Shown here: positions 31,471-61,723 of the stretch, piece after piece
How the letters are laid out: each line of letters starts with the position of its first letter
Position numbering within the stretch: position 1 is the stretch's first letter
Sequence record: OR924452
Reading direction: 5' to 3' (one strand)
DNA: 64,000 bases
From: Escherichia phage 241
Translations under genes and position numbers: made by a program
Notes under the pieces: generated by a model
Seen by the model: the letters and a program-made list of their open reading frames with translations, nothing else
The model's database searches: none
Told to the model about the DNA's origin: nothing

Positions 31471-31508
31471 GATTTATATCCTCACTTTTATAAGCAAGGA
31501 TATTTATA

Positions 31509-41488: not shown

Positions 41489-41523
41489 GTTCGTTTCCTC
41501 TATGGATAAACCTTATGGGATAT

Positions 41524-41973
41524 TTAGGCTTCTCTCTTCGCCAGCCCTGGTTTGAATACCACCATTTCTTCTACGTTATTGGCACTCATAGAGGCTATAG
41601 AATCGAACCCTTTGTTGACAAGTTCTTTCACATTATCATGTATCTTACCAGGCTTTATCCCCAACTCTCGCATTTTATTTTCCCACACCGAAACGTTATT
41701 AGAATCTATCACCAGAGTCTTCTTGGCCTTAACACGAAATGCCATGACAACAGGTTCACCAGATTGACGATAGCGAACGGCGTTTTCCGCGTAGATCTGC
41801 GCTTTTTCTGGATCCCCTGTCAGGTAAAATCCAGCACCCATCGTACCAGAGTCAGTCTGGCCAAATTTTTCAAAATCAAAGACGTCGAATTCAACATTCG
41901 ACCCATGATATAAAACAATATCCGTAAAATCGGGCAATGTTGATTCACGATAGAATTCTAGGAAGGTTTTCAT
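41524..41973 (-). CDS. hypothetical protein (149 aa); possible H-Y-E class ADP-ribosyltransferase-like fold
   Basis: YHGS ... GAGFY ... EEMVVF pattern resembles PARP/Tpt1/DarT-type motifs; preceded by the conserved late leader element. Confidence 0.4.
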   Translation of the reverse strand: MKTFLEFYRESTLPDFTDIVLYHGSNVEFDVFDFEKFGQTDSGTMGAGFYLTGDPEKAQIYAENAVRYRQSGEPVVMAFRVKAKKTLVIDSNNVSVWENKMRELGIKPGKIHDNVKELVNKGFDSIASMSANNVEEMVVFKPGLAKREA

Positions 41974-42007
41974 AGATACCCCACACTTGCTGTATGGGGT
42001 ATTTAGG
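41974..42007 (-). promoter_or_regulatory. conserved late leader element: CTAAATA + hairpin ATACCCCA...TGGGGTAT, then ATG
   Basis: Fourth copy (minus strand) of the element found upstream of three tail spike genes. Confidence 0.45.
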
Positions 42008-42012
42008 AGGGA

Positions 42013-43206
42013 TCAATCAGGGGTAAACTCGTTCACAGGAACTTGTTCCGGCATAGACAATTCGGGGCATGCTGCCTTCATTGGCTCAATATACGGCTTG
42101 CTACCAACAATCCAGAACAGAGCGTTTTCGTTGAGCAGTTCTGGCTTATGCTGTTGGATCCAGGTCATGACCTTGCCTTCATAGCGAGGATGCAACTCAA
42201 TATCGCCCCACTGGTAATCCATCAGGTCATTATAGCGAACCCAATTCGTTGTATGCAAATCCCAATGGTGTACTGCAAAGCGTGGGAGCGTTATCTCCGG
42301 CTCTCCCTTCTCGCGGATACCCATCAGGAGGCCAGCCAGCGAAACGCTCTTAGAGGCATGCTGAAGATCCTTCTTGCCGTACACATAATCTGGGTTGTCA
42401 TGATAGCAACGAGTAAAATCCGTTATGTGTGGAAGATTAGCTTGTTTTCCAATAATACGCAAACGGCTTTCAATAAAGTCCAGACGGTTGGGACCAATCC
42501 CGATCAGATATACATTTTTCAGATTCGGTTTCGGGTGCATAGCCAGCCCTGTCAAAATGCTGGTACAAGAATTACATGAACCAGCAGGAATGATCAGATC
42601 TGTGATATGGTCCGGAATGTTAGCAACCTGCTCGCCGCCCAGCATATGAAATCCTGCAATCCTCTCCGGAGAATGCAACGTATGATCCAGAGTGATCCCA
42701 TACTCTAGATAATATGCTTTTGGATTCTGCTGCTCAATCAATTTCTTGCAGCGCGGCTGGATAGTGCTGTTGTAACCCGAACCGACAAAGTTGAATTCGC
42801 TGCCGAACCATGCACTCATCTTAACCATATCGTGGTTCATACAGGTGGTTGGTTTGGTCGCGCCCAGGACTGTAGTTGTCTTGCCGCCGAAATGCCGTGA
42901 GACTGCTGTCGCCATAGGGGACTGCGGACTACCAACGACAGTACCATGGATAAGGTCTGGGGAGCCTCCGGCCTTGAGATGCTCAACCATGAGCCAGATG
43001 GCCTGACGAAGTTTACTGCCGTTGATGCCCTGCTTGCCATCTGTATAGTTGGACAGCGGCGCGAAGTAATCTTCACGCTTGAACCAGACCTGTTGATTGG
43101 TTTCAGGGTTGGCAACGAGTTCGCACGGGGTGTGCTTGTAGAGGTAGTCTTCCCAGTGGACCAGGTTGCGGTCGAGGGAAAGTGTATCGAAGATGGACTT
43201 GTTCAT
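42013..43206 (-). CDS. PLP-dependent enzyme, fold type II (Trp synthase beta / ACC deaminase-like)
   Basis: FKREDY...GSKLRQ (PLP-lysine region) and GTVVGSPQSP...TAVSRHFGG glycine loop match ACC deaminase/D-Cys desulfhydrase family. Confidence 0.55.
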   Translation of the reverse strand: MNKSIFDTLSLDRNLVHWEDYLYKHTPCELVANPETNQQVWFKREDYFAPLSNYTDGKQGINGSKLRQAIWLMVEHLKAGGSPDLIHGTVVGSPQSPMATAVSRHFGGKTTTVLGATKPTTCMNHDMVKMSAWFGSEFNFVGSGYNSTIQPRCKKLIEQQNPKAYYLEYGITLDHTLHSPERIAGFHMLGGEQVANIPDHITDLIIPAGSCNSCTSILTGLAMHPKPNLKNVYLIGIGPNRLDFIESRLRIIGKQANLPHITDFTRCYHDNPDYVYGKKDLQHASKSVSLAGLLMGIREKGEPEITLPRFAVHHWDLHTTNWVRYNDLMDYQWGDIELHPRYEGKVMTWIQQHKPELLNENALFWIVGSKPYIEPMKAACPELSMPEQVPVNEFTPD

Positions 43207-43275
43207 TCTATTTCTCCTGTAGACATTGGCTTATCATAGCGTATCTACAGGAGTATAGAAAAGGAGAATCTCGGG

Positions 43276-43944
43276 TTACTTGGTCAGAAAATCCATCAGG
43301 CGGCGGAAAAACGATTTGCGTTCTACTGGTTTCTTAGATTCAGGGACCGGAATAGAACTATCATATTTAACAACCGGAGCACCCTGATCGTTCAGAACAC
43401 GACTGGCTGGTGGAGTCGGCTTCAAAGATTTGATCGCCTGATTCAGATCGGAATTGTCCACAACACTCGCTTCTTCAGCCACAGAAACACACGGCTTGAT
43501 TAAAACAGATTTCTTAGACTGCTCATACTGATGAGCGATATCTAGATATTTCTTGCGCTCAGCGTAGAAATCGACGTTCTTAACTTTACGGCGGCGAGCA
43601 GTAGAACTCTCTTCACCATAAAAGTCATATCCATTTTTGAACATCCAATTCACTGCTTGCTCAAATGAATTGAATACCATATACAGGCCGCGCCGCCCGT
43701 TGACCATATCGTCTTCGCTGGAATAACCGATGAACACCGCTTGGCCTTTCTTGTTCAGATCAAATGGGGTGCAGACGCCCGTATCATCTAGGGAACGCGG
43801 TGCGAGGTGCCCGTCTCTGTAAATGTAAGCCGGATACAAGAACTCATTCAGAGTGCGCTTGTTGCCTTTATATGTGTACAGACGAGCAAATGGAGGCAGA
43901 TCACAAACAACATCATTGTAATCCCAGATTGTTACATTGCGCAT
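43276..43944 (-). CDS. hypothetical protein (222 aa)
   Basis: ORF. Confidence 0.4.
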   Translation of the reverse strand: MRNVTIWDYNDVVCDLPPFARLYTYKGNKRTLNEFLYPAYIYRDGHLAPRSLDDTGVCTPFDLNKKGQAVFIGYSSEDDMVNGRRGLYMVFNSFEQAVNWMFKNGYDFYGEESSTARRRKVKNVDFYAERKKYLDIAHQYEQSKKSVLIKPCVSVAEEASVVDNSDLNQAIKSLKPTPPASRVLNDQGAPVVKYDSSIPVPESKKPVERKSFFRRLMDFLTK

Positions 43945-44015
43945 GGTGTTTCCTCAAATCAATGAAGGGGTTTATAAACGGTTAAATTTTAAACCCCTTA
44001 TTGTCATTGAACAAA

Positions 44016-44534
44016 TCAAATACTGGTCATATAGAGTGGGACAACCTGCTCGGCAATCAACACGACCTCAGTAATAGTGAAGTCACCGCCATAAGAGTAC
44101 AGTTTGATTTGCGCCCCGTTTGTCGCCAGATTCCCATCCTTGTCAACACTGAAGAACGTAATGAAAGACAGGGTGTCCGGCGGCGGCACGCTAGCATCAC
44201 GACTTCTTGATAACTGGTTCCCAACAGAGCCAACAAAGTCAACAATCATGGTTCTGTTTGAAGTGGATCCAGACCATGAACCGACGATATTGACCTTCAC
44301 CGGAAGAATAGAATCATAAGGAAACGCGTGAAATTTGTGATCTGATAATTTAAAGAACGGAGCCAAACCAGTAGGAGAAGAAGGGTTCGGAGTCTTCCCA
44401 TCCAACACAGTTAACAAATCTATTCCAGTTGCCCCAGAAGTTAGAAGTTGTGACAAACCGGAAAATCTGACTTCTGTTTTGATGCGATGGGTCTGAAGCA
44501 TATTCCCCAAATAGGGAGATGTCAAAATGGCCAT
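44016..44534 (-). CDS. hypothetical protein (172 aa)
   Basis: ORF. Confidence 0.4.
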   Translation of the reverse strand: MAILTSPYLGNMLQTHRIKTEVRFSGLSQLLTSGATGIDLLTVLDGKTPNPSSPTGLAPFFKLSDHKFHAFPYDSILPVKVNIVGSWSGSTSNRTMIVDFVGSVGNQLSRSRDASVPPPDTLSFITFFSVDKDGNLATNGAQIKLYSYGGDFTITEVVLIAEQVVPLYMTSI

Positions 44535-44543
44535 ACTCCCTCC

Positions 44544-44777
44544 TTAAGAAACGATAACCGTCGCATCAGAATTAATTGCCTTAACCCATCCCACCGTCGG
44601 CGGGGTTAAAACGACCATATTTCCTTGATATATGATATGCGCGTTGTTACCCGTTGGAGTGCTGGGGCTATCACACAGATACACAGAACCGTGAGTCACT
44701 TGAAGAGTTTTCAAAGATGTGCCGTCTGAGACTTGCGTCCATGTACTTGCGTTTGGTGTGATCTTAGCAGTTGCCAT
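44544..44777 (-). CDS. hypothetical protein (77 aa)
   Basis: AAGGAGG SD; AATAAATA late-promoter-like motif ~26 nt upstream. Confidence 0.4.
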   Translation of the reverse strand: MATAKITPNASTWTQVSDGTSLKTLQVTHGSVYLCDSPSTPTGNNAHIIYQGNMVVLTPPTVGWVKAINSDATVIVS

Positions 44778-44814
44778 AATAGACCTCCTTTACAAGTCAG
44801 ATCTATTTATTACA

Positions 44815-44846
44815 GACAAAAAGAAACCCGATCATCCTGATCGGGC
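44815..44846 (-). terminator. rho-independent terminator (CCCGAUCA-gga-UGAUCGGG + UUUCUUUUU)
   Basis: 8-bp stem and U-run on minus strand between tRNA island and downstream operon. Confidence 0.45.
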
Positions 44847-44895
44847 TATGTTAAACCATCGTGGGGATGGAAAGACTACTCACAGCAATTTCTGA

Positions 44896-44990
44896 TAATG
44901 GGCGTTGGGAGAGTGCGTCGGGAATCGAACCCGAAACCGTCAGGACAATGAAAAGCTATTGCATTTCACCTTGCATATCCTCCGGCTTTC
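44896..44990 (-). ncRNA. tRNA-like element (T-arm UCGGG-UUCGAUU-CCCGA); no cloverleaf resolved
   Basis: Canonical T-arm on minus strand but no complementary 5' acceptor or 7-nt anticodon loop found by hand. Confidence 0.2.
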
Positions 44991-45071
44991 TTAACTTCCT
45001 TAACCCCAGATTGTTATGAAGTCGGCATGCACACCTTCTTCATCTTCAGGAAGTCACACTCATTGTTCTGG

Positions 45072-45144
45072 TTGCTTCAACTGGATTCGAACCAGTGACC
45101 TCTCCCTTATCAGGGGAACGCTCTACCTACTGAGCTATGAAGCA
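45072..45144 (-). tRNA. tRNA-Ile (anticodon GAU)
   Basis: Hand-folded cloverleaf: 7-bp acceptor, D-arm GCUC/GAGC, anticodon loop CUGAUAA, T-arm ACUGG-UUCGAAU-CCAGU; 73 nt. Confidence 0.7.
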
Positions 45145-45210
45145 ATTTGGTGCCCGTTAGAGGAGTTGAACCTCAGCACTCTGGTGATCAACCCAGAGAG
45201 TCGCGCCTCA
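45145..45210 (-). ncRNA. tRNA-like 3' module (T-arm-like + acceptor-like + CCA) abutting tRNA-Ile
   Basis: Sequence ...GAGGUUCAACUCCUCUAACGGGCACCA ends 3 nt before tRNA-Ile 5' end; only distant 5' partner (GCCCGUC, ~145 nt upstream). Confidence 0.2.
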
Positions 45211-45498
45211 TCTATTTGATGGTCAATTTGGGTCTTGCAAAACCTTTACTGACCGTCTACAAACAGACTGCTTGACCGAGCGTAATTTGGACGGGCTTCA
45301 CACCCGATTGTGCATTTGATCTGCCGTAGCCCAACTCCCCGCGCCGAAGCGCCGATTGGTTAACTGGCACCAGTGCCTTCTGGTTCGATCTCCTGTAACT
45401 TTACAGGCTTTGCGCCCGACCATTTCTGGAAGTTGAGGCATCGTTTCCGATGTGGAGTCCCCTCATTTTACACAGCTGGCTGCAACGCTTACCGTGTT

Positions 45499-45582
45499 TG
45501 GTGTGAGTGGATGGATTCGAACCACCGCGCTGTTACGGGGAGATTTACAGTCTCCTGCATTCGACCGCTCTGCCACACTCAC
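45499..45582 (-). tRNA. tRNA-Tyr (anticodon GUA), type II with long variable arm, encoded CCA
   Basis: Hand-folded: acceptor GUGAGUG/CACUCAC, 3-bp D-stem, anticodon loop CUGUAAA, 12-nt variable region, T-arm GGUGG-UUCGAAU-CCAUC. Confidence 0.65.
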
Positions 45583-45589
45583 ATTTAGT

Positions 45590-45659
45590 CTACCGCCGCG
45601 TGCTGGGCCACGCTCGAGGACATCGGCCATCCTTCCTCAGCTAATCCACGCGGCGGTAG
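45590..45659. repeat. 13-bp perfect inverted repeat (CTACCGCCGCGTG / CACGCGGCGGTAG), 44-nt spacer
   Basis: Read directly; lies immediately 5' of tRNA-Tyr on the transcribed strand. Confidence 0.5.
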
Positions 45660-45826
45660 ATTTGGATCAGAGTGTACGGTGTAGCATTCCGCAGGGGTGC
45701 ACCTACTGTAGCCCTTCCACTCTGAAATTGGTGGGTGTTACTTCCGTCGGGTTCAGATTCCGTTCGGCTATTGGACTTCGCTTCAAGAGCTTGTCGTTCG
45801 CGTACTTCGTGCTTACTTGCTTTCGT

Positions 45827-46261
45827 TCACACCCATTGTCTGGTACGTATTTCTTGAATAACTTCGTCAAACAAGAAATCCTTTAACCATTTTACTCCCA
45901 CCACCTGATTATTCTTAGGCGGCGTTACCCTCAATCTAACATTCTTTGGATATTGTTTAGGATCCACCAAGACTTCTGTGCAAGTCTCAGGATGATAGCC
46001 ATAATACAAGTCAACAACATCCGAATGGTAAACCGATTTACATTTACCATTGTAATAATTCGTGGAACTGGCATCAAGAATAAAGGATGCCTTATCTTGT
46101 AAAAGGGTTTTGCATTGTACTTTGTACAAGCGCCCTTCTATATCCAAAACAAAATCATACGGCGCATTATCACCGAAAGGTTGAGAAACTGTTAGCCCCT
46201 GCTCAGTGCATTTGAACAAGAACCTAGTCTCACCTATCATACCCCGTTGTTTCGAATTCAA
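45827..46261 (-). CDS. hypothetical protein (144 aa) within tRNA island; possible nuclease-like
   Basis: ORF between tRNA-Tyr and tRNA-Met; PYDFVLD...E.RLYKVQCK loosely resembles a PD-(D/E)xK motif. Confidence 0.35.
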   Translation of the reverse strand: MNSKQRGMIGETRFLFKCTEQGLTVSQPFGDNAPYDFVLDIEGRLYKVQCKTLLQDKASFILDASSTNYYNGKCKSVYHSDVVDLYYGYHPETCTEVLVDPKQYPKNVRLRVTPPKNNQVVGVKWLKDFLFDEVIQEIRTRQWV

Positions 46262-46273
46262 ATTATTCCGCCT

Positions 46274-46498
46274 TTATCCGTGCTTGTTCGCTTCAATTGC
46301 CCTTAATTGAGCATCAGCGTCAGCTTTGGTGTCATGTGTCCCAAGAACCTTCGTCTTGGTGTGGTCAAGGACAACCCACTTGTCGCCTCGCTTTTCAACA
46401 AACTCAACAATCTCTTTGTTGTCAGTAGCGAGGCCATCCCACTCAGCAAGAAACTCACCGAACGTTTTCATCATACTCACCAATCGTTTATTGAACAA
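46274..46498 (-). CDS. hypothetical protein (74 aa)
   Basis: ORF within tRNA island. Confidence 0.35.
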   Translation of the reverse strand: MFNKRLVSMMKTFGEFLAEWDGLATDNKEIVEFVEKRGDKWVVLDHTKTKVLGTHDTKADADAQLRAIEANKHG

Positions 46499-46591
46499 CT
46501 GGTTTATTTAGGTGCTCCCGAGGCGGTATTTTAATCCCGCGATCCCATCTCGCCTGTCGTAGACCGGAGCATGCTGACAGTCCAACATATT

Positions 46592-46667
46592 TGGTGACCC
46601 TGGCTGGACTTGAACCAGCGACCAATCGATTATGAGTCGACTGCTCTAACCACTGAGCTACGGGGCC
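46592..46667 (-). tRNA. tRNA-Met (anticodon CAU), encoded CCA
   Basis: Hand-folded: acceptor GGCCCCG (one C-A mismatch), D-arm GCUC-AGUGGUUA-GAGC, anticodon loop CUCAUAA, T-arm GCUGG-UUCAAGU-CCAGC. Confidence 0.7.
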
Positions 46668-46781
46668 AAAATTGGCGGGGTCTGAGGCTTTTCACCTCAC
46701 CTGCTGGATTGGCCTCCAGCTGTTTGTTCTCTCTGGGGACTCGCTGTCCGGACAGCTGTCCCTTAAACTATCGCCCCTTAA

Positions 46782-46892
46782 TTCATATTGCTGTGGGTAG
46801 TACCAAAGCGGAGATTTGGAATCTCTCACCCTATAGCGACCTTTAAACCGTTTGATCAGTCCGATCCAAAGGACTACCCACAGCAATATGAA
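46782..46892. repeat. 20-bp inverted repeat (TTCATATTGCTGTGGGTAGT / ACTACCCACAGCAATATGAA), 71-nt spacer
   Basis: Read directly from sequence. Confidence 0.55.
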
Positions 46893-47091
46893 TTTGTTGT
46901 GTCCAATCAAGGACTGTCAACCTTTTATCCCGTTTGTGCATGATCAGTTCATGCAGGCCTCTTTGTGCGCCTCACAGCAACGCGCTTCTGTAGGTCATTG
47001 ACTTGCACCGTAGTCTCACCACAGGCGTTTATTTTTCCAGGGCTTTCCACTTACAAGTCTTAACCAGATCGGGATACGGGCTTGTAAGATC

Positions 47092-47169
47092 GGATTGGAC
47101 ACAACTTTGATGGCTCTAGGACTAAAGATCCCGCGTCACCCATAGACTTGGTTTATAAAATCTAGAGCC
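47092..47169. repeat. 18-bp perfect inverted repeat (CAACTTTGATGGCTCTAG / CTAGAGCCATCAAAGTTG), 42-nt spacer
   Basis: Read directly from sequence. Confidence 0.55.
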
Positions 47170-47560
47170 ATCAAAGTTGCAACCAATGTCGCAACTCGCA
47201 CTTCAGCGTCTTCGTCTCGCTTCAGCACTTGTCCTCTACGTTCGGACCAAACGAGGCTGGCCGACAGAAACATAACACCACTCATCACTAGAGCGAGGAT
47301 GTGGTTGATAGCCACGATGTTACGTCTCTGTCGTAGAGTGATCACACTTGTCAGGATGATCACTGTTTTGCGAACTTGAAAATACTGCGCCTGTCTCGGG
47401 TTTCCCCTTAGTTCGGCCTCTCATTGTTCGTCTGGTCAGGGAGCTACCCTTGATGACCAGCTTATTTTGAGATCTTCGCCAGCACCCACTAGTGTCTAGA
47501 ATATGTAGGTGTCGAGGTCTGCAAGGCATTGCCCTATTTCATACAACGCTCTCTCAAGTG

Positions 47561-47694
47561 CGCAAATCGAAGTTCTCTGGGCTTAACAGGTTCGACCCAA
47601 CATGTTGTATATCGCCTAACTTGCTCATGGGACGGACACATCTGTGTACAGACCTTGAGGGTTAAAAGATATACCCAGAGAACTTCGATTTGCG
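47561..47694. repeat. 21-bp perfect inverted repeat (CGCAAATCGAAGTTCTCTGGG / CCCAGAGAACTTCGATTTGCG), 92-nt spacer
   Basis: Read directly from sequence. Confidence 0.55.
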
Positions 47695-47840
47695 TTGTGG
47701 GGGCAAACCCCCACACGGCCACTTCTTTGACAGGGATTGCCAGCCCTGGGGATTCCACTGTTTAAGGCTTTATCCCATAACGCCTGAGGCGCGTTTTAAC
47801 TTATTGAGCTTGCATAACTGCAAACTGATGCGCTGTGAGA

Positions 47841-47973
47841 CACATCTTTGAGGGCACTCAGTGTACAACAGGCTCCGATATTTCATAGGGCATTACTGCC
47901 TCGGATTTAAGTTGCCTTTCTCCTGAAACTCCATGCAGTCTCGCGTCTGACGCGGAATGCCCTCAAAGATGTG
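47841..47973. repeat. 16-bp perfect inverted repeat (CACATCTTTGAGGGCA / TGCCCTCAAAGATGTG), 101-nt spacer
   Basis: Read directly from sequence. Confidence 0.55.
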
Positions 47974-47975
47974 GA

Positions 47976-48096
47976 GCCGTTTTAGGGAGTCGAACCCAAA
48001 TGCTTGGCCAGCGCTGACCTTACATCCCATCTGACTTAGGCAACCCACCTCTGCTACTCAGGAGCTTATCCCCTTTGGACAGTCAGATATAACGGC
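47976..48096 (-). ncRNA. tRNA-like module: T-arm-like (GGG-UUCGACU-CCC) + acceptor-like pairing GCCGUU/AACGGC enclosing ~120 nt, CCA-like 3' end
   Basis: T-loop and 3' ...AAACGGCUCCA read directly; 5' partner GCCGUUA found 127 nt upstream; no anticodon arm. Confidence 0.2.
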
Positions 48097-48100
48097 TTTG

Positions 48101-48190
48101 GGATTGGAGGAAGGACTCGAACCTTCTCATGTACGCTCCTGATTTCTCAGAAGTAGCCTGCTCCCATCGACCTATTAAGTACACGCTCCG
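48101..48190 (-). ncRNA. tRNA-like module with perfect T-arm (GAAGG-UUCGAGU-CCUUC), acceptor 3' strand and CCA; no cloverleaf
   Basis: 3' end ...CCUUC-CUCCAAU-C-CCA is tRNA-like; only a 1-mismatch 5' partner too close for a full tRNA. Confidence 0.25.
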
Positions 48191-48395
48191 CTCATTGTTC
48201 GGCGGGAGCTTATTAATCACACCCTCCCACCTATTGTTAGTGCGCCGAATTTTGTTATGAGGAATCGGAAGACCTCACTGACTTATAGGCTATTACGCCG
48301 CCATCAGAACTTCGGAATCATTAGCAGTTATTTGCTTGGTCAGTTTCTAAAAACCCGCAAAGTCACGCACAACGAAAACGAAAACCTGTTTGAGT

Positions 48396-48451
48396 CCTAA
48401 ACCTACCTGTCTTGGTCTCACATCGATATGAGTGGCCAGGACTCAAACAGC
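48396..48451. repeat. 12-bp perfect inverted repeat (CTGTTTGAGTCC / GGACTCAAACAG), 32-nt spacer
   Basis: Read directly from sequence. Confidence 0.45.
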
Positions 48452-48513
48452 TTGCCGTTCAGTGAGTTAACTATACTTTGTAACCCGTTATTGATAAAAC
48501 CTTTTATTTTGTT

Positions 48514-48607
48514 GGCGAGGGTGTGGAATCGAACCACACTTCTGAGCGCTACCCCGTGTCACCACCTCACCATCGATTTGCCGGAACTTACGCATCCGGC
48601 CTCGCCT
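48514..48607 (-). ncRNA. tRNA-like module: acceptor GGCGAGG/CCUCGCC + T-arm GUGUGG-UUCGAUU-CCACAC, CCGG-hairpin in place of D-arm, no anticodon arm
   Basis: All 5-bp/7-nt-loop combinations in the central 42 nt tested by hand; none pair. Confidence 0.25.
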
Positions 48608-49215
48608 GTTGGCGCTCCTAAAATCCGGGAAGACAGTAGGAACAATTATGTTACCAACAGGAACCTTGTTGCCCTTTGACGCAACATTATGAACCCTCTG
48701 TGGAAGACTCATAATGTTGTCGGCGTAATGGAGATTAGCGCCCCCGACCTCCCCTTATATGTTGGTGTCGACTTGCCAACAGGGTGCTCTCTGATTCTGA
48801 GCTAATCACGCTACAACAGGGAGTTTCGTTCTCCGACGGTCAAGTGCGTCCACTGACACCAGCGAGGTGGATATTGACTTATGGAGCCGGAGTCCTCGTC
48901 CTAGGACTGTGCTTGGCCTCAGCCTTTACACCGCTGGTCGCCCGACTCTTTACACCATAAAATTTACTATACTACAGCCCAGCTAATTTGAAAAGTCCTC
49001 TCCCCTTTGAGCTACACTGCCCACAGCAGTGCGGACGAACCTTCACTCAAAACCGGATGCGCCGAAGTGGGCAACTGTTTACCGGACTGATCGGGTAGAC
49101 CCAGGAGAGAGCAGGTAATCCCGATCAGGAGGATGAGGAGTAACATCATGTAAAACATAGTGTTCCCTCCCTTCCATGCAACTAACTTTACTGCATTTAT
49201 TTATTGAATAAAGCG

Positions 49216-49785
49216 TTATTTTATCAATTCTAACTTCACAACGCGGCGCAGAAGATAAACATATTCATTAGATGCTTCATGCGACATATAATGCGTAGAA
49301 GGGGTGGAATGGTTGTTCTGGGTTTCTTTTAACCCAACGCGTTCAGCCCAACCATTAATGGAGTTCCCATAAAACCCGATAATCGCGCCGAAATAAATGC
49401 GCTGGCTCTCTGGTTCTAAAATATAGTTGACAGTGAAACAGATGTCAGAACGAATAGATTCTAATTTTATACCGACCCGACCTTCAGAGAATTCGTTGCG
49501 AACATACAAATGACGAAAACGATCGCGTCGCGCTTGTGATGACTCTTCCAATTCTTGGCGAAGTGAGGATGTTGCATCGATATTAAATGAAAATGTCGGG
49601 TTTTGCAAATCGGTACGGGCTAACTCTAATGCTGATTCAACAACACGGCGGAAATTAATATTTTTGCCAGTCAGACGTTTCACTTCTTCTGTAATTGTTC
49701 CGAAAGGGATTTTTACAACACGTTCCCCTTCGTATTTTGCTAACAAAGGGATGATGTGTTTCATTATTGCTGTATTAATGTGCAT
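49216..49785 (-). CDS. hypothetical protein (189 aa), first gene of the minus-strand block
   Basis: ORF. Confidence 0.4.
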   Translation of the reverse strand: MHINTAIMKHIIPLLAKYEGERVVKIPFGTITEEVKRLTGKNINFRRVVESALELARTDLQNPTFSFNIDATSSLRQELEESSQARRDRFRHLYVRNEFSEGRVGIKLESIRSDICFTVNYILEPESQRIYFGAIIGFYGNSINGWAERVGLKETQNNHSTPSTHYMSHEASNEYVYLLRRVVKLELIK

Positions 49786-50101
49786 TTCCTGAGCCTCGTC
49801 AAATTAATTAAATGTCCCCACTATTATATTGGGAATATGTTTATTGAATATAACTCCAAGAAAGGCCAATAAAATAATGACAGCGATTATTAATAGGTAA
49901 AAACTACTTTTCTACAACATCAAGAAACTGTATCTTAACGCGGTGCCCTTCGAGTTGTGAGTGTTAACGAACAACGAGAAGCAGCCTCCATGGCTGCGGA
50001 ATGGGACTGCCTGTCAAGGCGGTGTTACGAGCGAGGGCGTCAGCCCCCTCGCGAGTATATTCGAATAAATTAACGCGCGAGAGCGTTTTGATTCCCTTTG
50101 G

Positions 50102-50108
50102 CTAAATA
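50102..50108 (+). promoter_or_regulatory. late-promoter-like CTAAATA motif ~40 nt upstream of gp6-like gene
   Basis: Same heptamer as in the tail spike leaders. Confidence 0.3.
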
Positions 50109-50148
50109 TCTTCAACACCATATTCAAACTCAGGTGATGGAGATTATC

Positions 50149-51930: not shown

Positions 51931-52768
51931 TAATGGTCACAATGGGGTTAAGTATGAAACCCCGTTGTTTTACCAAAACGATTTTCCTCTGTTCATCGAG
52001 TTCATGGACACGTTCTTTAATTGGCTGTATCGGCAGCAGGGCTTCACTCAAGAAGAAATTTTGGCATATCTGGCAGACACTTCGAGTTGGATGAATCCTG
52101 AGAGTGAAGATTCTCCTGTTAAACAACTCATAGATTTAAAGGCCGACAAAACGCCAGGCTCTGAAGCCAAAGATTATTTGTCAGATAAATTTTTGGTCAG
52201 AACATTTGAGAACATGATGGCTCTTGATGCCGAGACGCTGCTAGACGCTGATGGAAGGCCGTTGCTTTCTATTGAAGACAAGAACAAGCAGATAGACGAC
52301 TGGTATAATGATTTTGGGTTTCAACGAACTGTCGATAAATCATTTCAAGAATTTGGACATTTTATCCCAGTCGGTTCGGATTCTTTATTGACGGCCACGG
52401 GCGATACGTTCTCTGTTTATATTGAAGGAACTAAACGAAGAACTCTGGATCATCCGCGTTGGCTGAAATTGTTGAAACACATCTATAAAATACGTGGAAC
52501 AAAGAAAGCGATTGAATTGTTCTTTTGGATATATTTCGGTTGTCCAGTCAGCGTCTATTTTACGAAAGAAGACATAGGCGGTCTGGACGGAAATTTTGAA
52601 TGTGACGGCACGACAGGGATGCGTGATGATTACTATTATGATGAATACACTTATGTTATAGGAGTCCCAGGCGACGTATCTGATTTTGAAGGTGTGTTTG
52701 AGCGCGTCTTCCGTCAGCATTTCCATCCTGCTGGATTTACTGTATTCCTAGAAAGCACAAGGAGCTAA
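51914..52768 (+). CDS. virion structural protein, baseplate-associated (284 aa)
   Basis: Start at ATG 51914 (MSKDLNNG) with GAGGTG SD, overlapping gp6 stop. Confidence 0.4.
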   Translation: MSKDLNNGHNGVKYETPLFYQNDFPLFIEFMDTFFNWLYRQQGFTQEEILAYLADTSSWMNPESEDSPVKQLIDLKADKTPGSEAKDYLSDKFLVRTFENMMALDAETLLDADGRPLLSIEDKNKQIDDWYNDFGFQRTVDKSFQEFGHFIPVGSDSLLTATGDTFSVYIEGTKRRTLDHPRWLKLLKHIYKIRGTKKAIELFFWIYFGCPVSVYFTKEDIGGLDGNFECDGTTGMRDDYYYDEYTYVIGVPGDVSDFEGVFERVFRQHFHPAGFTVFLESTRS

Positions 52769-52770
52769 AA

Positions 52771-53961
52771 ATGGCCGATTTCCTGAGTCAATATACAGGT
52801 CAGCAGATAGATCAGATATTGGGTTCTGTTGACGACAAAGTAAGTAAAAACGACGTCATTGATGATTTTGAAGTCAGTGACCCATTGTTTCCGCCTTCTG
52901 CTCGCCTGACTTATGAGTTGAAAAGGTCTGTGGATACGATTAATGACACTCTGACCAACAAAGTTATAAGAACGGATAGTGGTGAACAGACAATCAACGG
53001 TAAGAAGACATTTAATGCGCTGTTGGTTACTAACGGGGGAATCCAAGTCCCCACTGGGAAATCTGTTTCAATCGCGGACGAACCAACCAACTCAACAGAC
53101 GGTGTCAACCTGAGTATGTTGAGGAAACATGGTGTCAGTGAAGACACCGCGCCAGATGGGTCTGGTTTGGCTGGGGAATTATTGACTTCCGGATATTACA
53201 AATTCAAACTGGATTTTAACAGATTGGCTGCGTATACGGAATTAACTCTCCCAACATCAGTTCCCGTGCAAACAGATTCTGGAGTTCGCACATGGTCAAT
53301 GACTGCATTTTTTAATGCGTTATTTGCCGACAACCGTTTTAACGGTTATGTAACGACGACCACGTATGATGCCGACATGTTGAGTCTGGAGTCTCAGCTT
53401 AACAATATCAACACGACGTTGAACGGAAAAGTCAACACGTCAACTTACAACACAAAAATGGCTTCGTTGGATTTGAGTATATCCAACATTAACACATCTT
53501 TGAGCAACAAGGTTGAGGTCAGCACATATAATACGAAGATGACTTCCTTGGACGGCAGTATCAGTTCTCTCACGACTGGTAAGGTCGATGTATCAACGTA
53601 TAATGCCAAAATGACCACAATTGATAACAGTTTGGGGAACGCTGTTTATCGCACCAAAACAAACTTGTCATCACTGACGGTATCGGCTTCTGGAACAACA
53701 GCTCTGCCAGACTTTGATTTGGTGAAACTTTGCCAGATATTGGTAACAGCACAATGGGGTACAGGAGATGTCGTAGACACATATCGAGTCACCATAACTC
53801 GAGATGGGACGATTAAGTCTGAGCTGCTGATCCAGAAAAGTACGAGCGGAACTGTGACGTTTACGGGTTCTGTAGTTGGTGGGAAACTGAGGATTTCTGT
53901 TGTCAATGCCAATACGACAACACCTTGCTCAGTCGATTATTCTATTACAGCATCTTTCTAA
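52771..53961 (+). CDS. tail fiber-like protein with internal tandem peptide repeats
   Basis: Three to four ~24-aa repeats (V.[TV]STYN.KM.S.D.S.S...) in central region; operon position between baseplate and tail spikes. Confidence 0.5.
   Translation: MADFLSQYTGQQIDQILGSVDDKVSKNDVIDDFEVSDPLFPPSARLTYELKRSVDTINDTLTNKVIRTDSGEQTINGKKTFNALLVTNGGIQVPTGKSVSIADEPTNSTDGVNLSMLRKHGVSEDTAPDGSGLAGELLTSGYYKFKLDFNRLAAYTELTLPTSVPVQTDSGVRTWSMTAFFNALFADNRFNGYVTTTTYDADMLSLESQLNNINTTLNGKVNTSTYNTKMASLDLSISNINTSLSNKVEVSTYNTKMTSLDGSISSLTTGKVDVSTYNAKMTTIDNSLGNAVYRTKTNLSSLTVSASGTTALPDFDLVKLCQILVTAQWGTGDVVDTYRVTITRDGTIKSELLIQKSTSGTVTFTGSVVGGKLRISVVNANTTTPCSVDYSITASF
53380..53650 (+). repeat. in-frame tandem repeats (~70-80 nt units) within fiber gene
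   Basis: Protein-level repeats read from the translation. Confidence 0.4.
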
Positions 53962-53963
53962 AA

Positions 53964-54007
53964 CTAAATACCCCTAGATGACATGAATACATTTAGGGGT
54001 ATTACAA
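53964..54007 (+). promoter_or_regulatory. conserved late leader element: CTAAATA + hairpin AATACCCCTA...TAGGGGTATT, then ATG
   Basis: One of four copies; 10-bp stem; ATG 4 nt after hairpin. Confidence 0.5.
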
Positions 54008-57000
54008 ATGGCCAACAAACCAACACAGCCTCTTTTCCCTTTGGGTTTAGAAACTTCGGAGTCTTCTAACATAAAAGGCTTCAACAACTCCGGCACCATA
54101 GAGCATTCCCCTGGTGCAATATTGACGTTCCCTGAAGATACTGATGTTGCGGGTCTTCCATCTTCTGTGCGTTACAATCCTGTTAGTGATGAATTCGAAG
54201 GTTATTACGAAAATGGCGGGTGGCTGTCTTTGGGCGGCGGTGGAATACGCTGGGAAACGCTCCCATACGCTCCCTCTAGCAATTTGTTAGAAGGGCGCGG
54301 CTATCTCATTAATAACTCCACTGGGACTTCTACGGTGGTTCTTCCTTCCCCTACGCGCGTTGGTGACTCGGTTACAATTTGTGATGCCTATGGTAAATTC
54401 GCGACGTACCCATTGACTGTATCTCCAGCGGGAAATAACCTGTACGGCTCCACCGAAGATATGACGATATCCACCGATAACGTGTCGGCGACTTTCACTT
54501 GGTCTGGTGCTGAGCAGGGTTGGGTTGTTACATCTGGTGTTGGCCTAGGTCAAGGTCGTGTGTACAGTCGAGAGATTTTCACTCAAATTTTAGCATCTGA
54601 TACAAATGAAGTGACTCTCAACATCCCTCCGACAATTGTGGACGTGTACACTGATGGGAAACGCCTTACAGAATCCAAATATTCTTTAAATGGAAACGTA
54701 ATCACTTTCGACCCTTCTTTACCTGCTGGCACTGAATTGCAGGTAATAGAATATACTCCGATTCAGTTAGGTACTGGCGGCGGGGGTTCGGGCGCTTCTG
54801 CAATCACCTGGATTTACAATGGCGGATCCGCTATCGGCGGCGAAACCGAAATAACGCTAGACATCGTTGTAGATGATGTTCCGGCTATTGATATAAACGG
54901 GTCTCGTCAGTACAAAAATCTTGGATTCACGTTCGACCCATTGACGAGTAAAATCACTCTGACGCAAGAACTGGAACCAGAAGATGAAGTTGTTGTGGTT
55001 ATAAATGGGACACCAAACATTTATAACCAGATCGATCGTTCTTTACAGGAAGTTGCTCGCGCCTACAATTTTACAAATGCTCAAGTTATTTTGAGCAACG
55101 ATTATACTTCTGCGCTGGATAATAAAGTCGTTATTTATGATACAACATCCCAACGTTCTTGGGGGATTCCATCTGGAATTCCAGCAGGTTCTACAGTGGT
55201 TTCCGTCAATGGGGATCAACTGAAATACAAAAATGGATCAACTGAAACCACTGTTACATTGGTGAGTGTACCAGGTAGTGCAGAGAAGTTGAAGAACGAT
55301 CTGGCGTCGAACTCTGGCGCGGGCATGTTGAAAACTTCTAGAGGTGATACCGTAGAAGAAGAATTGACTTTTATTAATCAGAATATGGTCGTTCAAATTT
55401 CAGATTTCGCGAGCCTTAGAACTTTAGTGCCAGCCACAGCGGGCATCCGAGTCAAATTGAAAGGTTATTATTCTGGTTCTGAAATTGGTGGCGGAGAATT
55501 CATTTCCGTCGCTGGTGATGCTGTTGATGATGCTGGGATGATTGCTCGAGTGTCAAGCAGCTTCTATTGGAAGAGAATTATCGACAAACATATTACTCCT
55601 GGTATGTATGGCATCAAAGGGAATCTTCCAGAAGATCCGGCAGTGAAACTGAACGCTATGTTTACGGCTGCGGCTGCGGCTAACGCTTATGTCTTACTGA
55701 ACGATGTCGATACTCTGGTCTGTAAAAGCCCTGTCGTGATCCCAGCACATTCATTAGTGTACGGCAACAAGCGGACCATATTGAAACGTGATGCATCGTT
55801 GTCATATGCTAATGATTTCTTGACAATTATGAATGATTCATATGTCAAGGGGATCTATGTTGATGGTAGCCGTTTAGATTCTCAGACTCCGCTAGAAGCA
55901 GTTTTGGTGCGCATCGCTGGGAATGTGACTATCCATAAGAGCGAGATCCGAAACAATGCTGGCTATGGCGTTGTTGGTAACGCAGTCCCTGGCATTCGTA
56001 TCACCAAGAACATTTTTTCCAACTTCGCCAAAGGTTGTGTGGCTATGTTTGGCGACGGAACGGCGACGAGTGATGATCTGCAAATTAATGATAACAGATT
56101 CTTTAACCTGGGCGCGGGAACCATTTATGTTGGCGGTTACTCAAACTTCCTTGTCGACAAAAACGTCGGAAGAGGCACTTACGTGGGTTCTCCAGGAAAC
56201 CGTCTGTATGTTGTGACCAATACCAACGGGACTATCACCCAAAGCGCTGGGCCAGATTTTGGGGCGCTGAAAACGGGTATGTTCTTTGTATTGCCTGGTG
56301 GTTCTGAACATATGATAACGGCAGTCAACAGCCTTACAAGTGTGACAGTAACCCCAGCGCCTCCGTCGAATGCAACGGTTCGTGCAATTGCTGGGACAGG
56401 GGATCTTCTGGGCATCCAATCATGCTCCTACGGCACCATCAGCCGTAACAACCTGACCGATTGTGTGACTTACGGAACTGGTGGAGGCACGATGGAGGGG
56501 AGCACTCTGGGGTGCAATTATGTCACTTGGGAAGACAACTTCATCCGCAACACAGGTAAGAACGGAATCAACGTCGGGCAATCAGGCGCTGGGGTCGCCA
56601 CGTGTTCAATCCTGAGGAACACTCTGATACAGGTTGGTAACGGCGGTCAGGGCGTCGGCCCAGCGTATCTTCTGCCTTGGTTCGATACGGTAGGTATTGC
56701 TCTGTATCAGGGAAATCCAGGTTATATGGCGAATATGGACGTCAGTGATAACAACGTCTCTACATGGTCTGGCGATCTGAATGACGGCGCTGCTTGGTTT
56801 GGTATGAGCGGTTGTACGGAAGCCACTGTGACTTGTACAGGCAACAAATCTTCTGGTTATTCCGACGGCTATGTTCGTGGAGATATATTAGAAGTCACGT
56901 TGACAGGTTATGGTACAGGGGCGGCTGCGACTTCATTCGTTAGTGATGGTGAGTCTATACAGATAACCGTTCAAACAGGTACTTCACCAACAGCTTCTCC

Positions 57001-57181
57001 TTATTTTTCAGTGCGGAAGGCGATCCGCACCCGCCATCAACCGATGATAACGGCGCAGATCGTCACCACAACTGGGAACATGTCTCATTGTTGGGGCATG
57101 CAATCTAGTACAGCAGGAAACTGGATGGTGGGACAGAATACAACTCCTTCAGGGGTCACGACGTATTACGCAAAAGGGTAA
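54008..57181 (+). CDS. tail spike protein with gp10-like N-terminal anchor domains and beta-helix domain (1057 aa)
   Basis: Beta-helix repeat signatures (NNAGYGVVGN..., IRNT...); N-terminal region shared with the 59448 gene. Confidence 0.6.
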   Translation: MANKPTQPLFPLGLETSESSNIKGFNNSGTIEHSPGAILTFPEDTDVAGLPSSVRYNPVSDEFEGYYENGGWLSLGGGGIRWETLPYAPSSNLLEGRGYLINNSTGTSTVVLPSPTRVGDSVTICDAYGKFATYPLTVSPAGNNLYGSTEDMTISTDNVSATFTWSGAEQGWVVTSGVGLGQGRVYSREIFTQILASDTNEVTLNIPPTIVDVYTDGKRLTESKYSLNGNVITFDPSLPAGTELQVIEYTPIQLGTGGGGSGASAITWIYNGGSAIGGETEITLDIVVDDVPAIDINGSRQYKNLGFTFDPLTSKITLTQELEPEDEVVVVINGTPNIYNQIDRSLQEVARAYNFTNAQVILSNDYTSALDNKVVIYDTTSQRSWGIPSGIPAGSTVVSVNGDQLKYKNGSTETTVTLVSVPGSAEKLKNDLASNSGAGMLKTSRGDTVEEELTFINQNMVVQISDFASLRTLVPATAGIRVKLKGYYSGSEIGGGEFISVAGDAVDDAGMIARVSSSFYWKRIIDKHITPGMYGIKGNLPEDPAVKLNAMFTAAAAANAYVLLNDVDTLVCKSPVVIPAHSLVYGNKRTILKRDASLSYANDFLTIMNDSYVKGIYVDGSRLDSQTPLEAVLVRIAGNVTIHKSEIRNNAGYGVVGNAVPGIRITKNIFSNFAKGCVAMFGDGTATSDDLQINDNRFFNLGAGTIYVGGYSNFLVDKNVGRGTYVGSPGNRLYVVTNTNGTITQSAGPDFGALKTGMFFVLPGGSEHMITAVNSLTSVTVTPAPPSNATVRAIAGTGDLLGIQSCSYGTISRNNLTDCVTYGTGGGTMEGSTLGCNYVTWEDNFIRNTGKNGINVGQSGAGVATCSILRNTLIQVGNGGQGVGPAYLLPWFDTVGIALYQGNPGYMANMDVSDNNVSTWSGDLNDGAAWFGMSGCTEATVTCTGNKSSGYSDGYVRGDILEVTLTGYGTGAAATSFVSDGESIQITVQTGTSPTASPYFSVRKAIRTRHQPMITAQIVTTTGNMSHCWGMQSSTAGNWMVGQNTTPSGVTTYYAKG

Positions 57182-57191
57182 TATTGAATGC

Positions 57192-57231
57192 CTAAATACC
57201 CCATATTGGACATCCTTTATGGGGTATTATC
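57192..57231 (+). promoter_or_regulatory. conserved late leader element: CTAAATA + hairpin ATACCCCATA...TATGGGGTAT, then ATG
   Basis: Near-identical to the 59405 copy. Confidence 0.5.
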
Positions 57232-59235
57232 ATGATTTCTCAATTCAATCAGCCACACGGCTCCACTTCAATATTTGTTAACAAACAATCTATCGCTCTG
57301 AATTTCGGTGTCACCAAAGACGAAGTTGTTTATTTCGCTGCTGGCATTGACCTTAGCGGATACAAAGTAATCTATGATGAATCGACTCAACGGGCTTATT
57401 CTCTTCCAGCTGGGATTGTTTCAGGAACTACTGCCATCAGTCTGGACGAAAAAGCCATTTTGACCCATTCGGCTGGCTCTGTTGATCTTGGAGAACTGGC
57501 TGTGCAACGCGGAGAGTTTGTTACTGTACCTGGTTCTTTTAATTTCGGCCATACCATTAATGTGAAAAATGAACTTCTTGTTCACGATGATGAAAAATAT
57601 CGATGGGATGGTTCTTTGCCAAAGGTAGTTGCCGCTGGTTCTACACCCGATAACTCAGGCGGTGTTGGCACAGGCGCGTGGGTTAGCGTTGGGGATGCGT
57701 CATTAAGGAATGAGTTAGCAAGTCCTTCAGGATCATCACTTTCAGGTCATTCAAATGGCCTTTCGGTAGCTGAAAACCTGAATAACCTCTTAGCAAAAGC
57801 ACAATTCATCACACCAGAGCAATTTTACAGCAATCATCCTGGTGAAACTGACTGGGCTGTGATGATTAACGAGGCATATTCCTATGCTCGCGATCATAAT
57901 AGTTCTGTGTTGCTTGCTAATGACTACCACACTGCGTCAACAATTGTTCACTTAGACGGTGTTACTGTTATTTGTACCGGGCGTATTATTGCATCGCCAA
58001 CAGGAACATATTCATACACCACCGCATTAGGTAATGAAGAGGAGGCTGCTTATGTAATTACTACTGAAAATGGTGTGTTTAACAATGCAAAATCTTCATC
58101 TCTTTACGGTCTAACATTGACATATACAGACAATAGAGAACCATCAGGATATACCGACCCTCACATACTAGCTAAAGGCGTTGTCATTACTGATACGGCT
58201 AATGTTTACATAAACAACCTGCAAACATTTGGGTTCTTAAATGGCGGTGTCGATGTTGGTGGAATTTCTGGTAATGGGTTTGAGATTGTAATAAATAAAT
58301 GTTTAGCCTGGATTTACGCATGGACGGATTCGGAGAAGATAGGATTCCGATGCAACGTTACAGACTCTACATTCTATGATGTCGTAACTGTAGCATATGG
58401 AATTGGAATTCATAATGTTAAAGGTGGTGGAAACGTCTATTTTAACGCGCACCCATGGGGGTATCCTTTAACCGCCGCTAATCTATACCCAAACAGACAG
58501 TGTAAAATTCAATTTCTGTTAACAGGGGGTGGCACAACTTTCTTCAGGCCGTATGCCGATACAATCACAAAATTAGACAGCAGTCAAAACGCTAGTCGGG
58601 CCAATGGTGGTGTTGGGTTTTACATCGACAACTGGAGAAATAAAATTATCGCAGCAGAGGTGGCGATACATAATGATGAGATTAGCACTGGAATGTCATT
58701 AGCTTACCTGGTAGGCGATGCCTCGCGTAATGAAATTGAATTCACAAACATAAACAACACATCGAAACTTGGGAATGAAAGAGTTTCATATGATTCAGGA
58801 TATCAAACCGCTTTATTTACAAACATTGTCAGAATTCCTGAGTATAACGCAGGTAATTTAAGCAACCTTACAGGAAGCATATCATTCAATGGTACAGGAG
58901 TTACTTCTTCTGGCACGTACAGTTTACGCAGAAGTGGTGAGTATATAGACATTCTTTTAACTATAGGAGTGACTTCAATATCAAGCCCATCCGGACCATT
59001 ATCAATCACGCTACCACGTGGTCTTGTGTGTAGATTTGGGCCATCAGCAGAGCCTGAGCAGACTTCGTGCTTTGGTAACATCAGTTCAATCAATATAGGT
59101 GTAATTGCAGTTCTAAACGGAAGCTCTATAGAGTTCTATTACAAGACAGCAAATGGGGCAAGGGTCCTTATTAATGCAGCTGGAGTATCAGTCGGGACTC
59201 TTGAGTTATTTTTAAGAGGTAAAATTTCGAATTAA
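57232..59235 (+). CDS. tail spike protein (667 aa) with conserved N-terminal head-binding module
   Basis: N-terminal ~170 aa parallel the 61724 gene (GSTS...SGYKVIYD...RAY[SA]LP...GAW[VI]S[VA]G.ASLRN.LA). Confidence 0.6.
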   Translation: MISQFNQPHGSTSIFVNKQSIALNFGVTKDEVVYFAAGIDLSGYKVIYDESTQRAYSLPAGIVSGTTAISLDEKAILTHSAGSVDLGELAVQRGEFVTVPGSFNFGHTINVKNELLVHDDEKYRWDGSLPKVVAAGSTPDNSGGVGTGAWVSVGDASLRNELASPSGSSLSGHSNGLSVAENLNNLLAKAQFITPEQFYSNHPGETDWAVMINEAYSYARDHNSSVLLANDYHTASTIVHLDGVTVICTGRIIASPTGTYSYTTALGNEEEAAYVITTENGVFNNAKSSSLYGLTLTYTDNREPSGYTDPHILAKGVVITDTANVYINNLQTFGFLNGGVDVGGISGNGFEIVINKCLAWIYAWTDSEKIGFRCNVTDSTFYDVVTVAYGIGIHNVKGGGNVYFNAHPWGYPLTAANLYPNRQCKIQFLLTGGGTTFFRPYADTITKLDSSQNASRANGGVGFYIDNWRNKIIAAEVAIHNDEISTGMSLAYLVGDASRNEIEFTNINNTSKLGNERVSYDSGYQTALFTNIVRIPEYNAGNLSNLTGSISFNGTGVTSSGTYSLRRSGEYIDILLTIGVTSISSPSGPLSITLPRGLVCRFGPSAEPEQTSCFGNISSINIGVIAVLNGSSIEFYYKTANGARVLINAAGVSVGTLELFLRGKISN

Positions 59236-59238
59236 AAT

Positions 59239-59268
59239 AACCCCGCTTCGGCGGGGTTTTGTTATTTT
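59239..59268 (+). terminator. rho-independent terminator (AACCCCGC-ttcg-GCGGGGTT + TTGTTATTTT)
   Basis: Hairpin and T-run 4 nt after stop. Confidence 0.5.
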
Positions 59269-59404
59269 CTCTTATCGTGGCATATAATTTGTTTATTCAA
59301 AGATTCTTCTAATTCAGGATGAAACCCATTTCATAAATTTTGTTGTGTAGACTATGTTAAGAGGAAGAGTATAAACATAGATAAACTCAACATATTGATA
59401 CTCA

Positions 59405-59447
59405 CTAAATACCCCATATTGGCAAATCCTTTATGGGGTATTTTCAA
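59405..59447 (+). promoter_or_regulatory. conserved late leader element: CTAAATA + hairpin ATACCCCATA...TATGGGGTAT, then ATG
   Basis: Near-identical to the 57192 copy. Confidence 0.5.
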
Positions 59448-61679: not shown

Positions 61680-61703
61680 CCCCCTCCTTCGGGAGGGTTT
61701 ATT
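61680..61703 (+). terminator. rho-independent terminator (CCCTCC-ttcg-GGAGGG + TTTATT)
   Basis: Hairpin and T-run after stop at 61676. Confidence 0.5.
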
Positions 61704-61723
61704 AGAAAAACAGGAGATTCATC

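Follow-up and report, generated by a model that had tools for sequence, protein, structure and literature searches.

Late-promoter-like motifs within hairpins that hold the only Shine-Dalgarno stretch of tail spike and ADP-ribosyltransferase-like genes in a Kuttervirus: a probable translational gate of the T4 gene e type

Why should three tail spike genes and one unrelated gene for a 149-amino-acid (aa) protein carry the same leader of about 40 nucleotides (nt), in which the motif CTAAATA runs into a hairpin that ends just ahead of the start codon? The question arises in a 64,000-nt stretch of Escherichia phage 241 (sequence record OR924452), called the window below. Its tail spike region is about 98.6% identical to Salmonella phage Vi01, and the phage is a ViI-like Kuttervirus (Ackermannviridae). 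An earlier note on this DNA had read the leader as a dedicated late promoter with a hairpin right at the 5' terminus of the late mRNA, and had placed the 149-aa gene in a tail spike regulon. We estimate at roughly 60% the probability that each element is instead a translational gate of the type described for T4 gene e, in which a late promoter lies inside a hairpin that masks the Shine-Dalgarno (SD) sequence. Each of the four genes would then probably be translated only from its own late transcript. The four elements, c1 to c4, and the terminator nearest to c3 are laid out as follows.

53964..54007, + strand: c1, ahead of the TSP4-type tail spike gene 54008-57181 (1057 aa). Core CTAAATA 53964-53970; 5' arm 53967-53980; loop 53981-53989; 3' arm 53990-54003; SD-like GGGG 53996-53999; predicted transcription start about 53976 (A). 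The open reading frame (ORF) 52771-53961 ends 3 nt upstream, with no terminator between.
57192..57231, + strand: c2, ahead of the TSP3-type gene 57232-59235 (667 aa). Core 57192-57198; 5' arm 57195-57205; 3' arm 57218-57228, with a small inner GG/CC helix; GGGG 57221-57224; predicted start 57203-57205. The TSP4 stop codon (57181) is 11 nt upstream, with no terminator between.
59405..59447, + strand: c3, ahead of the TSP2-type gene 59448-61676. Core 59405-59411; 5' arm 59407-59418; 3' arm 59432-59443; GGGG 59435-59438; predicted start 59416-59418. Unlike c1, c2 and c4, it has a strong bidirectional terminator 147 nt upstream.
41974..42006, - strand: c4, ahead of the 149-aa gene 41524-41973. Core 42006-42000; 5' arm 42002-41992; loop 41991-41987; 3' arm 41986-41976; GGGG 41982-41979; predicted start 41995-41993. 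The upstream ORF 42013-43206 (-) ends 7 nt ahead of the core, with no terminator between.
59239..59258, no strand assigned: true bidirectional intrinsic terminator after the TSP3 gene, found by the terminator scan.

Direct reading places the four leaders where the earlier note had them, its sole slip being one base on the minus strand (42007 for 42006): CTAAATA begins at 53964, 57192 and 59405 (+) and at 42006 (-), and the ATGs follow at 54008, 57232, 59448 and 41973 (-). The exact 11-mer CTAAATACCCC has four copies in the window, and with up to one mismatch it has five matches against 0.75 expected, a count reached in 0 of 100 shuffles. Folded alone with RNAfold, c1 to c4 form stems of 14, 11, 12 and 11 base pairs (bp) at about -17 to -20 kcal/mol; the hairpins are thus confirmed, while the 8-10 bp first assigned to them was too short. 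Their 3' arms do stop just ahead of the ATG, at a distance of 2-4 nt and not 3-6 nt. The stem begins at base 3-5 of CTAAATA in all four copies, none of which has a canonical SD between hairpin and ATG, and GGGG is indeed the only SD-like stretch of the four genes. A census of the window and the remainder of the Vi01 genome returned c1-c4 as the only CTAAATA-CCCC...GGGG modules. An Rfam scan of the window at the gathering threshold returned three tRNAs and no other family, and the modules match none.

An ATG at 59433 lies within the 3' arm of c3, in frame with the annotated start at 59448, so mechanical ORF calling gives a product of 747 aa from 59433. The position of the SD and the Vi01 annotation favour 59448 as the true start of the TSP2-type gene. 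The modules thereby correct what is expected of start codons and SDs in tail spike genes.

CTAAATA agrees with 7 of the 8 positions of the T4 late promoter TATAAATA, an 8-bp TATA box at -13..-6 (PMC2988020), which agrees with the one-mismatch variant of the earlier note. In the window and Vi01, some 25 late or structural genes, among them those for sheath, neck, scaffold, VrlC, gp6, hub, gp5 and gp26, have NTAAATA 20-45 nt ahead of them, and homologs of gp55, gp33 and gp45 are annotated in Vi01. Each of the [C/A]TAAATA leaders of gp6, VrlC, neck, tail sheath, scaffold, gp26 and gp5 has a normal SD. CTAAATA is a general late-promoter-like motif of the family, and presumably an active promoter; the hairpin is the special part.

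We compared loci from six genera (Kuttervirus, Agtrevirus, Limestonevirus, Taipeivirus, Miltonvirus and Nezavisimistyvirus), across which the module is kept ahead of TSP4-type genes, TSP2/3-type genes and the 149-aa gene or a neighbouring 152-aa gene. A motif search of the genome and its relatives and covariation of the arms had both been proposed as checks, and both speak for the element. Inner-stem sequences differ among relatives yet still pair: over 26 distinct variants, 93.4% of alignment cells pair, against 81.3% after shuffling (0/500) and at most 54.5% in slid controls. Two-sided changes occur in five pairs, and the covariation score is 0.323 against 0.104 (26 variants). An inserted A in phiEa2809 (CTAAATAACCCC) is met by GGGGTT, which rescues the pairing. 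The last three bases of the promoter core are themselves paired in 23-24 of the 26 variants. There are nine G.U cells and one A.C cell, an excess that points to a structure of the sense-strand RNA.

These patterns bear on two readings in which no RNA structure is at work. The inverted repeat could be a DNA operator for a dimeric phage regulator, since it is palindromic and overlaps the late promoter, and Vi01 encodes several small 'transcriptional regulators'. However, the spacing between the arms runs from 5 to at least 13 nt among copies and genera, the inner stem varies freely in sequence with its pairing kept, and the 9 to 1 ratio of G.U to A.C would matter only to one RNA strand; we hold an operator to be very improbable. 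The 40-nt leader could also be a homology patch for recombinational swapping of tail spike modules, with the hairpin incidental. Spike gene bodies do differ between close relatives while leaders and gene N-termini are conserved, but a homology patch leaves the compensatory changes, the SD content and the fixed distance to the AUG unexplained, together with the same layout on endolysin, ADP-ribosyltransferase (ART)-like and other non-spike genes. This second reading appears extremely improbable.

A canonical SD is present in 0 of 27 strong-hairpin leaders and in 29 of 37 other CTAAATA leaders (Fisher p = 4.5e-11, computed on related variants). GGGG lies 5-10 nt from the AUG, which itself stays outside the stem in c1-c4, and the duplex of GGGGU with the anti-SD at the 3' end of 16S rRNA (-6.1 to -6.6 kcal/mol) is as strong as those of the SDs of neighbouring late genes (-6.0 to -7.4 kcal/mol). 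These results support the earlier note's view of a late promoter joined to an RNA structure with a bearing on translation: the hairpin is conserved, covaries as RNA and contains the only SD.

The gp6 late operon, with its promoter at 50102, contains modules c1 and c2, and c4 belongs to a late operon that runs from about 44810 (-) to a terminator at 41030-41004. Because no terminator separates c1, c2 or c4 from the upstream ORF, the RNA entering these modules would be the polycistronic late-operon transcript, and transcripts that read through them presumably exist. Such RNA would have both arms, and its stem of -17 to -20 kcal/mol would hide the SD and leave the downstream gene untranslated; the stem may also add some pausing or termination. 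The gp55-type late promoter CTAAATA would lie in the 5' arm, opposite the 3' arm with the gene's only SD, GGGGU. By analogy with T4, transcription would start about 6 nt after TAAATA, within the 5' arm, and RNA begun there would form no stem, expose its SD and be translated. Each cistron would, on balance, be expressed only from its own late promoter.

This geometry also speaks against the extreme 5' end as the place of the hairpin. The stem takes in the last 3-5 bases of the core and CCCC, about -8 to -2 in T4 terms, so a promoter-started transcript would lack most of the 5' arm, and the hairpin would be a property of read-through RNA that is abolished in the late mRNA. Opening the stretch from SD to AUG is predicted to cost read-through RNA 17-19 kcal/mol; for RNAs that start +4 to +8 after TAAATA the figure is 4-8 kcal/mol, lower by about 11-13 kcal/mol. 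The SD is fully paired in the read-through fold, and the short RNAs retain weak residual structure.

A full hairpin at the 5' end of the late mRNA, which would stabilise the transcript or hold translation until a factor opens it, has some features on its side. The structure is strong and conserved, and the inner stem (AGAUG/CAUUU in c1; AUA..GG/CC..UAU in c2 and c3) survives a start by the T4 rule and shows the strongest covariation. That inner stem is the sole part that could be 5'-terminal, and alone it is weak (-1 to -4.5 kcal/mol). Under sigma-70-family or gp55 geometry, moreover, a promoter cannot transcribe its own core and CCCC (about -5..-2), and a 5' stabiliser of the ompA-leader type, in which the stem starts no more than a few nt from the primary 5' end, would likewise need a start inside the promoter core to have the full stem. 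A stem of -19 kcal/mol over the only SD would strongly inhibit synthesis of an abundant virion protein, and the endolysin layout described below matches T4 gene e, whose late 5' ends fall inside the structure. We consider a 5'-terminal hairpin improbable.

Termination deserves more weight, and it could act alongside SD masking. Taken as the main role, with the hairpin a terminator or attenuator or a 3'-end stabiliser of the upstream gene and its A-rich flank co-opted as late promoter, it is unlikely. The G+C core stem sits between AAATA upstream and TATT(TT) downstream, as in bidirectional terminators; of the 8 nt that follow the core, 6 are T in the endolysin and Vi01_142c copies (see below), and c3 has TATTTTC. 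A scan of IMG/VR for the pattern also gave, among the matches listed, many unrelated plain terminators together with chance matches. Yet the terminator scan, which asks for a G+C-rich stem, a loop of 3-8 nt and 5 or more U among the 8 nt behind the stem, reports none of the four copies. Its loop limit itself bars c1-c3, so weak termination may occur; over the 8 nt beyond GGGG, the number of T in c1-c4 is 3, 4, 5 and 4. Unlike intrinsic terminators, with which they share the G+C core between AAATA and TATT(T) flanks, the modules have a longer loop or inner helix, and the U-tract is short and interrupted in c1, c2 and c4. The next AUG is always 5-10 nt away and has no SD outside the hairpin, and a terminator would need neither that fixed distance nor the absence of another SD. 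Real terminators nearby differ in appearance and have a distinct SD after them.

Translational coupling by a ribosome ending on the upstream ORF was rejected as a general mechanism from the coordinates, because the stop reaches CCCC only in c1 and is 16-23 nt off in c2 and c4 and about 170 nt off in c3.

The gate itself has documented precedents in T4 genes e, soc, 49 and I-TevI, and in mobE of Aeh1 (review PMC3014915). In gene e one strand of the helix, the 5' one, is encoded by the late promoter, and the 3' strand sequesters the SD or AUG. The 5' ends of late transcripts fall within the structure (PMC3014915), and long transcripts are masked while those from the embedded promoter are translated. 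For our modules the same division of labour is proposed. McPheeters 1986, Gott 1988 and Gibb & Edgell 2009 are said to be the original reports behind the T4 and Aeh1 hairpin leaders. The present modules differ from gene e in that the core is CTAAATA and not TATAAATA, the SD is the unusual GGGGU, the targets are tail spike and ART-like genes within late operons, and the masked RNA would be late and not early. They would take the gene e paradigm beyond early/late discrimination and apply it to cistrons within late operons.

Several points weigh against the gate. No transcription start site or RNA-seq data for Ackermannviridae phages were found in the literature, so the key geometric premise is borrowed from T4. 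The genes upstream of c1, c2 and c4 are themselves late structural genes, whereas the masked transcripts of T4 are early or middle. With a late polycistronic transcript as the masked RNA, the selective benefit of blocking read-through translation is uncertain, and cistron insulation or stoichiometry as that benefit is only a guess. Module c3 is conserved despite the strong terminator 147 nt upstream, and in the short transcripts GGGG finds weak alternative pairing, with P(unpaired) of 0.02-0.3. The register of the covariation alignment was anchored by hand on CCCC/GGGG, and the variants behind the covariation and the Fisher test are phylogenetically related, not independent.

It seems quite unlikely that the module is a family-wide 'cistron insulator', or that starts are not T4-like and the late mRNA keeps the intact hairpin. 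If the insulator were true, identical promoter-leader cassettes would tie TSP4, TSP3, TSP2 and an injected ART-like enzyme each to its own late promoter, all of these being equally strong, and would thereby set the stoichiometry of the branched tail spike complex. If the starts were not T4-like, the intact hairpin on the late mRNA could need a phage RNA-opening factor, which would make for a true post-transcriptional regulon. For a tail spike gene cloned with its upstream sequence, the gene e-type gate predicts silence as long as the gene lacks its own late promoter and retains the 5' arm, and the same would hold for swaps of receptor-binding modules in therapeutic Kutterviruses.

How far does the arrangement extend beyond these four genes? 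With any NTAAATA allowed, the census adds modules with TTAAATA and TATAAATA. There are three more strong promoter-in-hairpin modules with other forms of NTAAATA: those of the endolysin gene and Vi01_142c (outside the window) and one at 31508-31471 (-). The further features of the window to which the text refers are given here.

41489..41527, - strand: control copy with one mismatch, CTAAATATCCC / CTAAATATCCCATAAGG..., upstream of the 152-aa gene 41030-41488.
31471..31508, - strand: perfect T4 consensus TATAAATA with hairpin ATATCCTTGCTT/AAGTGAGGATAT, -13.2 kcal/mol.
50102..50148, + strand: weak form of the layout, at the late promoter that serves the gp6 baseplate-wedge operon; the operon reads into c1 and c2.
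46469..46511, - strand: CTAAATA with hairpin ACCAGTTGTT/AACGATTGGT (-10.5 kcal/mol); its 3' arm and the GGTGAG SD of a small (66-aa) ORF overlap.
61682..61724, + strand: intrinsic terminator (61682-61697), then the ordinary AGGAG SD of a fourth tail spike gene.

The endolysin gene of Vi01, Vi01_086c (locus L030, 31091-31052, -), has exactly the arrangement of T4 gene e. Its late-promoter variant TTTAAATA lies inside a hairpin of -18 kcal/mol, with arms TTTAAATACCTCTGCA...TGCGGAGGTATTT in the full leader TTTAAATACCTCTGCAATCACTGCGGAGGTATTTTCTTATG, and the 3' arm holds a canonical GGAGG SD. The gene sits among nrd/phoH genes, and its module is kept in Kuttervirus aagejoakim and in Taipeivirus T765 (Klebsiella phage T765); in aagejoakim CT of the 5' arm is changed to TC, and the G.U wobble pair is shifted accordingly. 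Upstream of Vi01_142c (locus L031, 23662-23633, -) stands the strong module TTAAATACCCCCAAAATTGGGGGTATTTTTATG with a terminator-like U-rich tail, and the Limestonevirus ortholog of this gene has the leader CTAAATACCCCCATCATCCATGGGGGTATTTTCTTATG. The hairpin at 31508-31471 (-) hides the GAGGA SD of a 55-aa ORF (31303-31470), and its TATAAATA adjoins the stop codon of an upstream 411-aa ORF.

Since the same module is found on the endolysin gene, it does not define a tail spike regulon, and the assignment of 41524..41973 to one falls. Vi01_142c and the 55-aa ORF carry the module as well, while the fourth tail spike gene (ATG 61725) has neither CTAAATA nor the hairpin module in 61682..61724 (+). 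The element acts in cis, and no shared trans factor is needed beyond the general late-transcription machinery. This fourth spike gene has no late promoter to itself; its counterpart in Ag3, IME250 and locus L013 has CTAAATA and a normal SD.

The copy at 41527 (-) is a late promoter with no 3' arm or hairpin and with a canonical GAGGAA SD. In phiMAM1 and phiEa2809, the ortholog of its 152-aa gene has the full hairpin module. We considered that the hairpin-less promoter might be a decayed duplicate that travelled with a duplicated gene. The 149-aa and 152-aa proteins give no BLASTP alignment and are therefore not paralogs, which rules out this simple origin.

Weaker versions of the layout occur ahead of gp6, the 66-aa ORF, the neck protein, tail sheath and VrlC, at 50102-50148 (+), 46511-46469 (-) and 44810 (-) in the window and at 39406 (-) and 35156 (-) in locus L031. 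The bases after the promoter at these sites are pyrimidine-rich and complementary to the SD of their own gene, a family-wide tendency; at 50102..50148, ATCTTCA right after CTAAATA pairs with TGGAGAT, which includes the SD. In 19 other late leaders, in a test that left out the four strong copies, the post-promoter segment pairs with its own SD region at -4.66 kcal/mol and with those of other leaders at -3.19 kcal/mol, a result equalled by 12 of 20000 permutations. Given this complementarity, the 'cCcc' of a published motif, CTAAATAcCcc, can be read as a promoter-embedded anti-SD tract.

CTAAATAcCcc is one of two 'unique regulatory motifs' of Ackermannviridae, as cited for phage EspM4VN (PMC7283392). 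The sequence is identical to ours, with five sites per genome in that account and four exact sites, or five with one mismatch, here. As described there, CTAAATAcCcc is a bare motif; the partner arm GGGGTAT and the absent SD are features noted here. No paper in the literature searched mentions the hairpin partner arm GGGGTAT, the absent SD or an anti-SD reading of 'cCcc'. The motif reportedly originates in the 2012 proposal of the genus Viunalikevirus. The CBA120 and AG3 papers are older than its description, and as late as 2011 ViI-like phages were described as having an unidentified late promoter (PMC3184105). The observation is real, then, while the mechanism is probably of a known type, that of T4 gene e, on a motif already published. 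What is gained is a mechanistic reading, with the 'cCcc' tail as an anti-SD tract, for a motif that Ackermannviridae genome papers list unexplained.

The 149-aa protein (41524-41973, -) matches Pfam PF18760 ART-PolyVal, the ART of polyvalent proteins, at 43.2 bits (cut-off 31.2), and also DUF3990. Its gene, which shares a late operon with that of a tail-needle-knob protein, is late but does not belong to a regulon specific to spikes. T4 Alt is an ART that is made late and packaged in the virion, and the 149-aa protein is reminiscent of it. In Shigella phage Ag3 (locus L023, 3948-3848, -) a c4-type leader, CTAAATACCCCATACAACCCGTGTGGGGTATCTATG..., is present with the ART-like gene absent, and the promoter of the 152-aa gene follows within about 100 nt; this orphan leader resembles the scar of a deletion.

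The 397-aa ORF upstream of c4 (42013-43206, -) has a sub-threshold match to PALP, a family of pyridoxal phosphate (PLP)-dependent enzymes (31.1 bits, cut-off 35), and in PP35 the ortholog carries the annotation 'putative threonine ammonia lyase', which is odd for a late, structural-looking operon. Among the IMG/VR matches listed, the layout CTAAATACCCC-hairpin-GGGGTAT-ATG appears in unrelated contigs (L100, L064 and L089), where it precedes an ORF for a SegE-type GIY-YIG endonuclease (Pfam PF19835, 130 bits) and other homing-endonuclease-like ORFs; these leaders recall the known hairpin control of T4-type homing endonuclease genes. The three tRNA genes of the window (45072-45144, 45502-45582 and 46595-46667, -) lie between the two late gene blocks.

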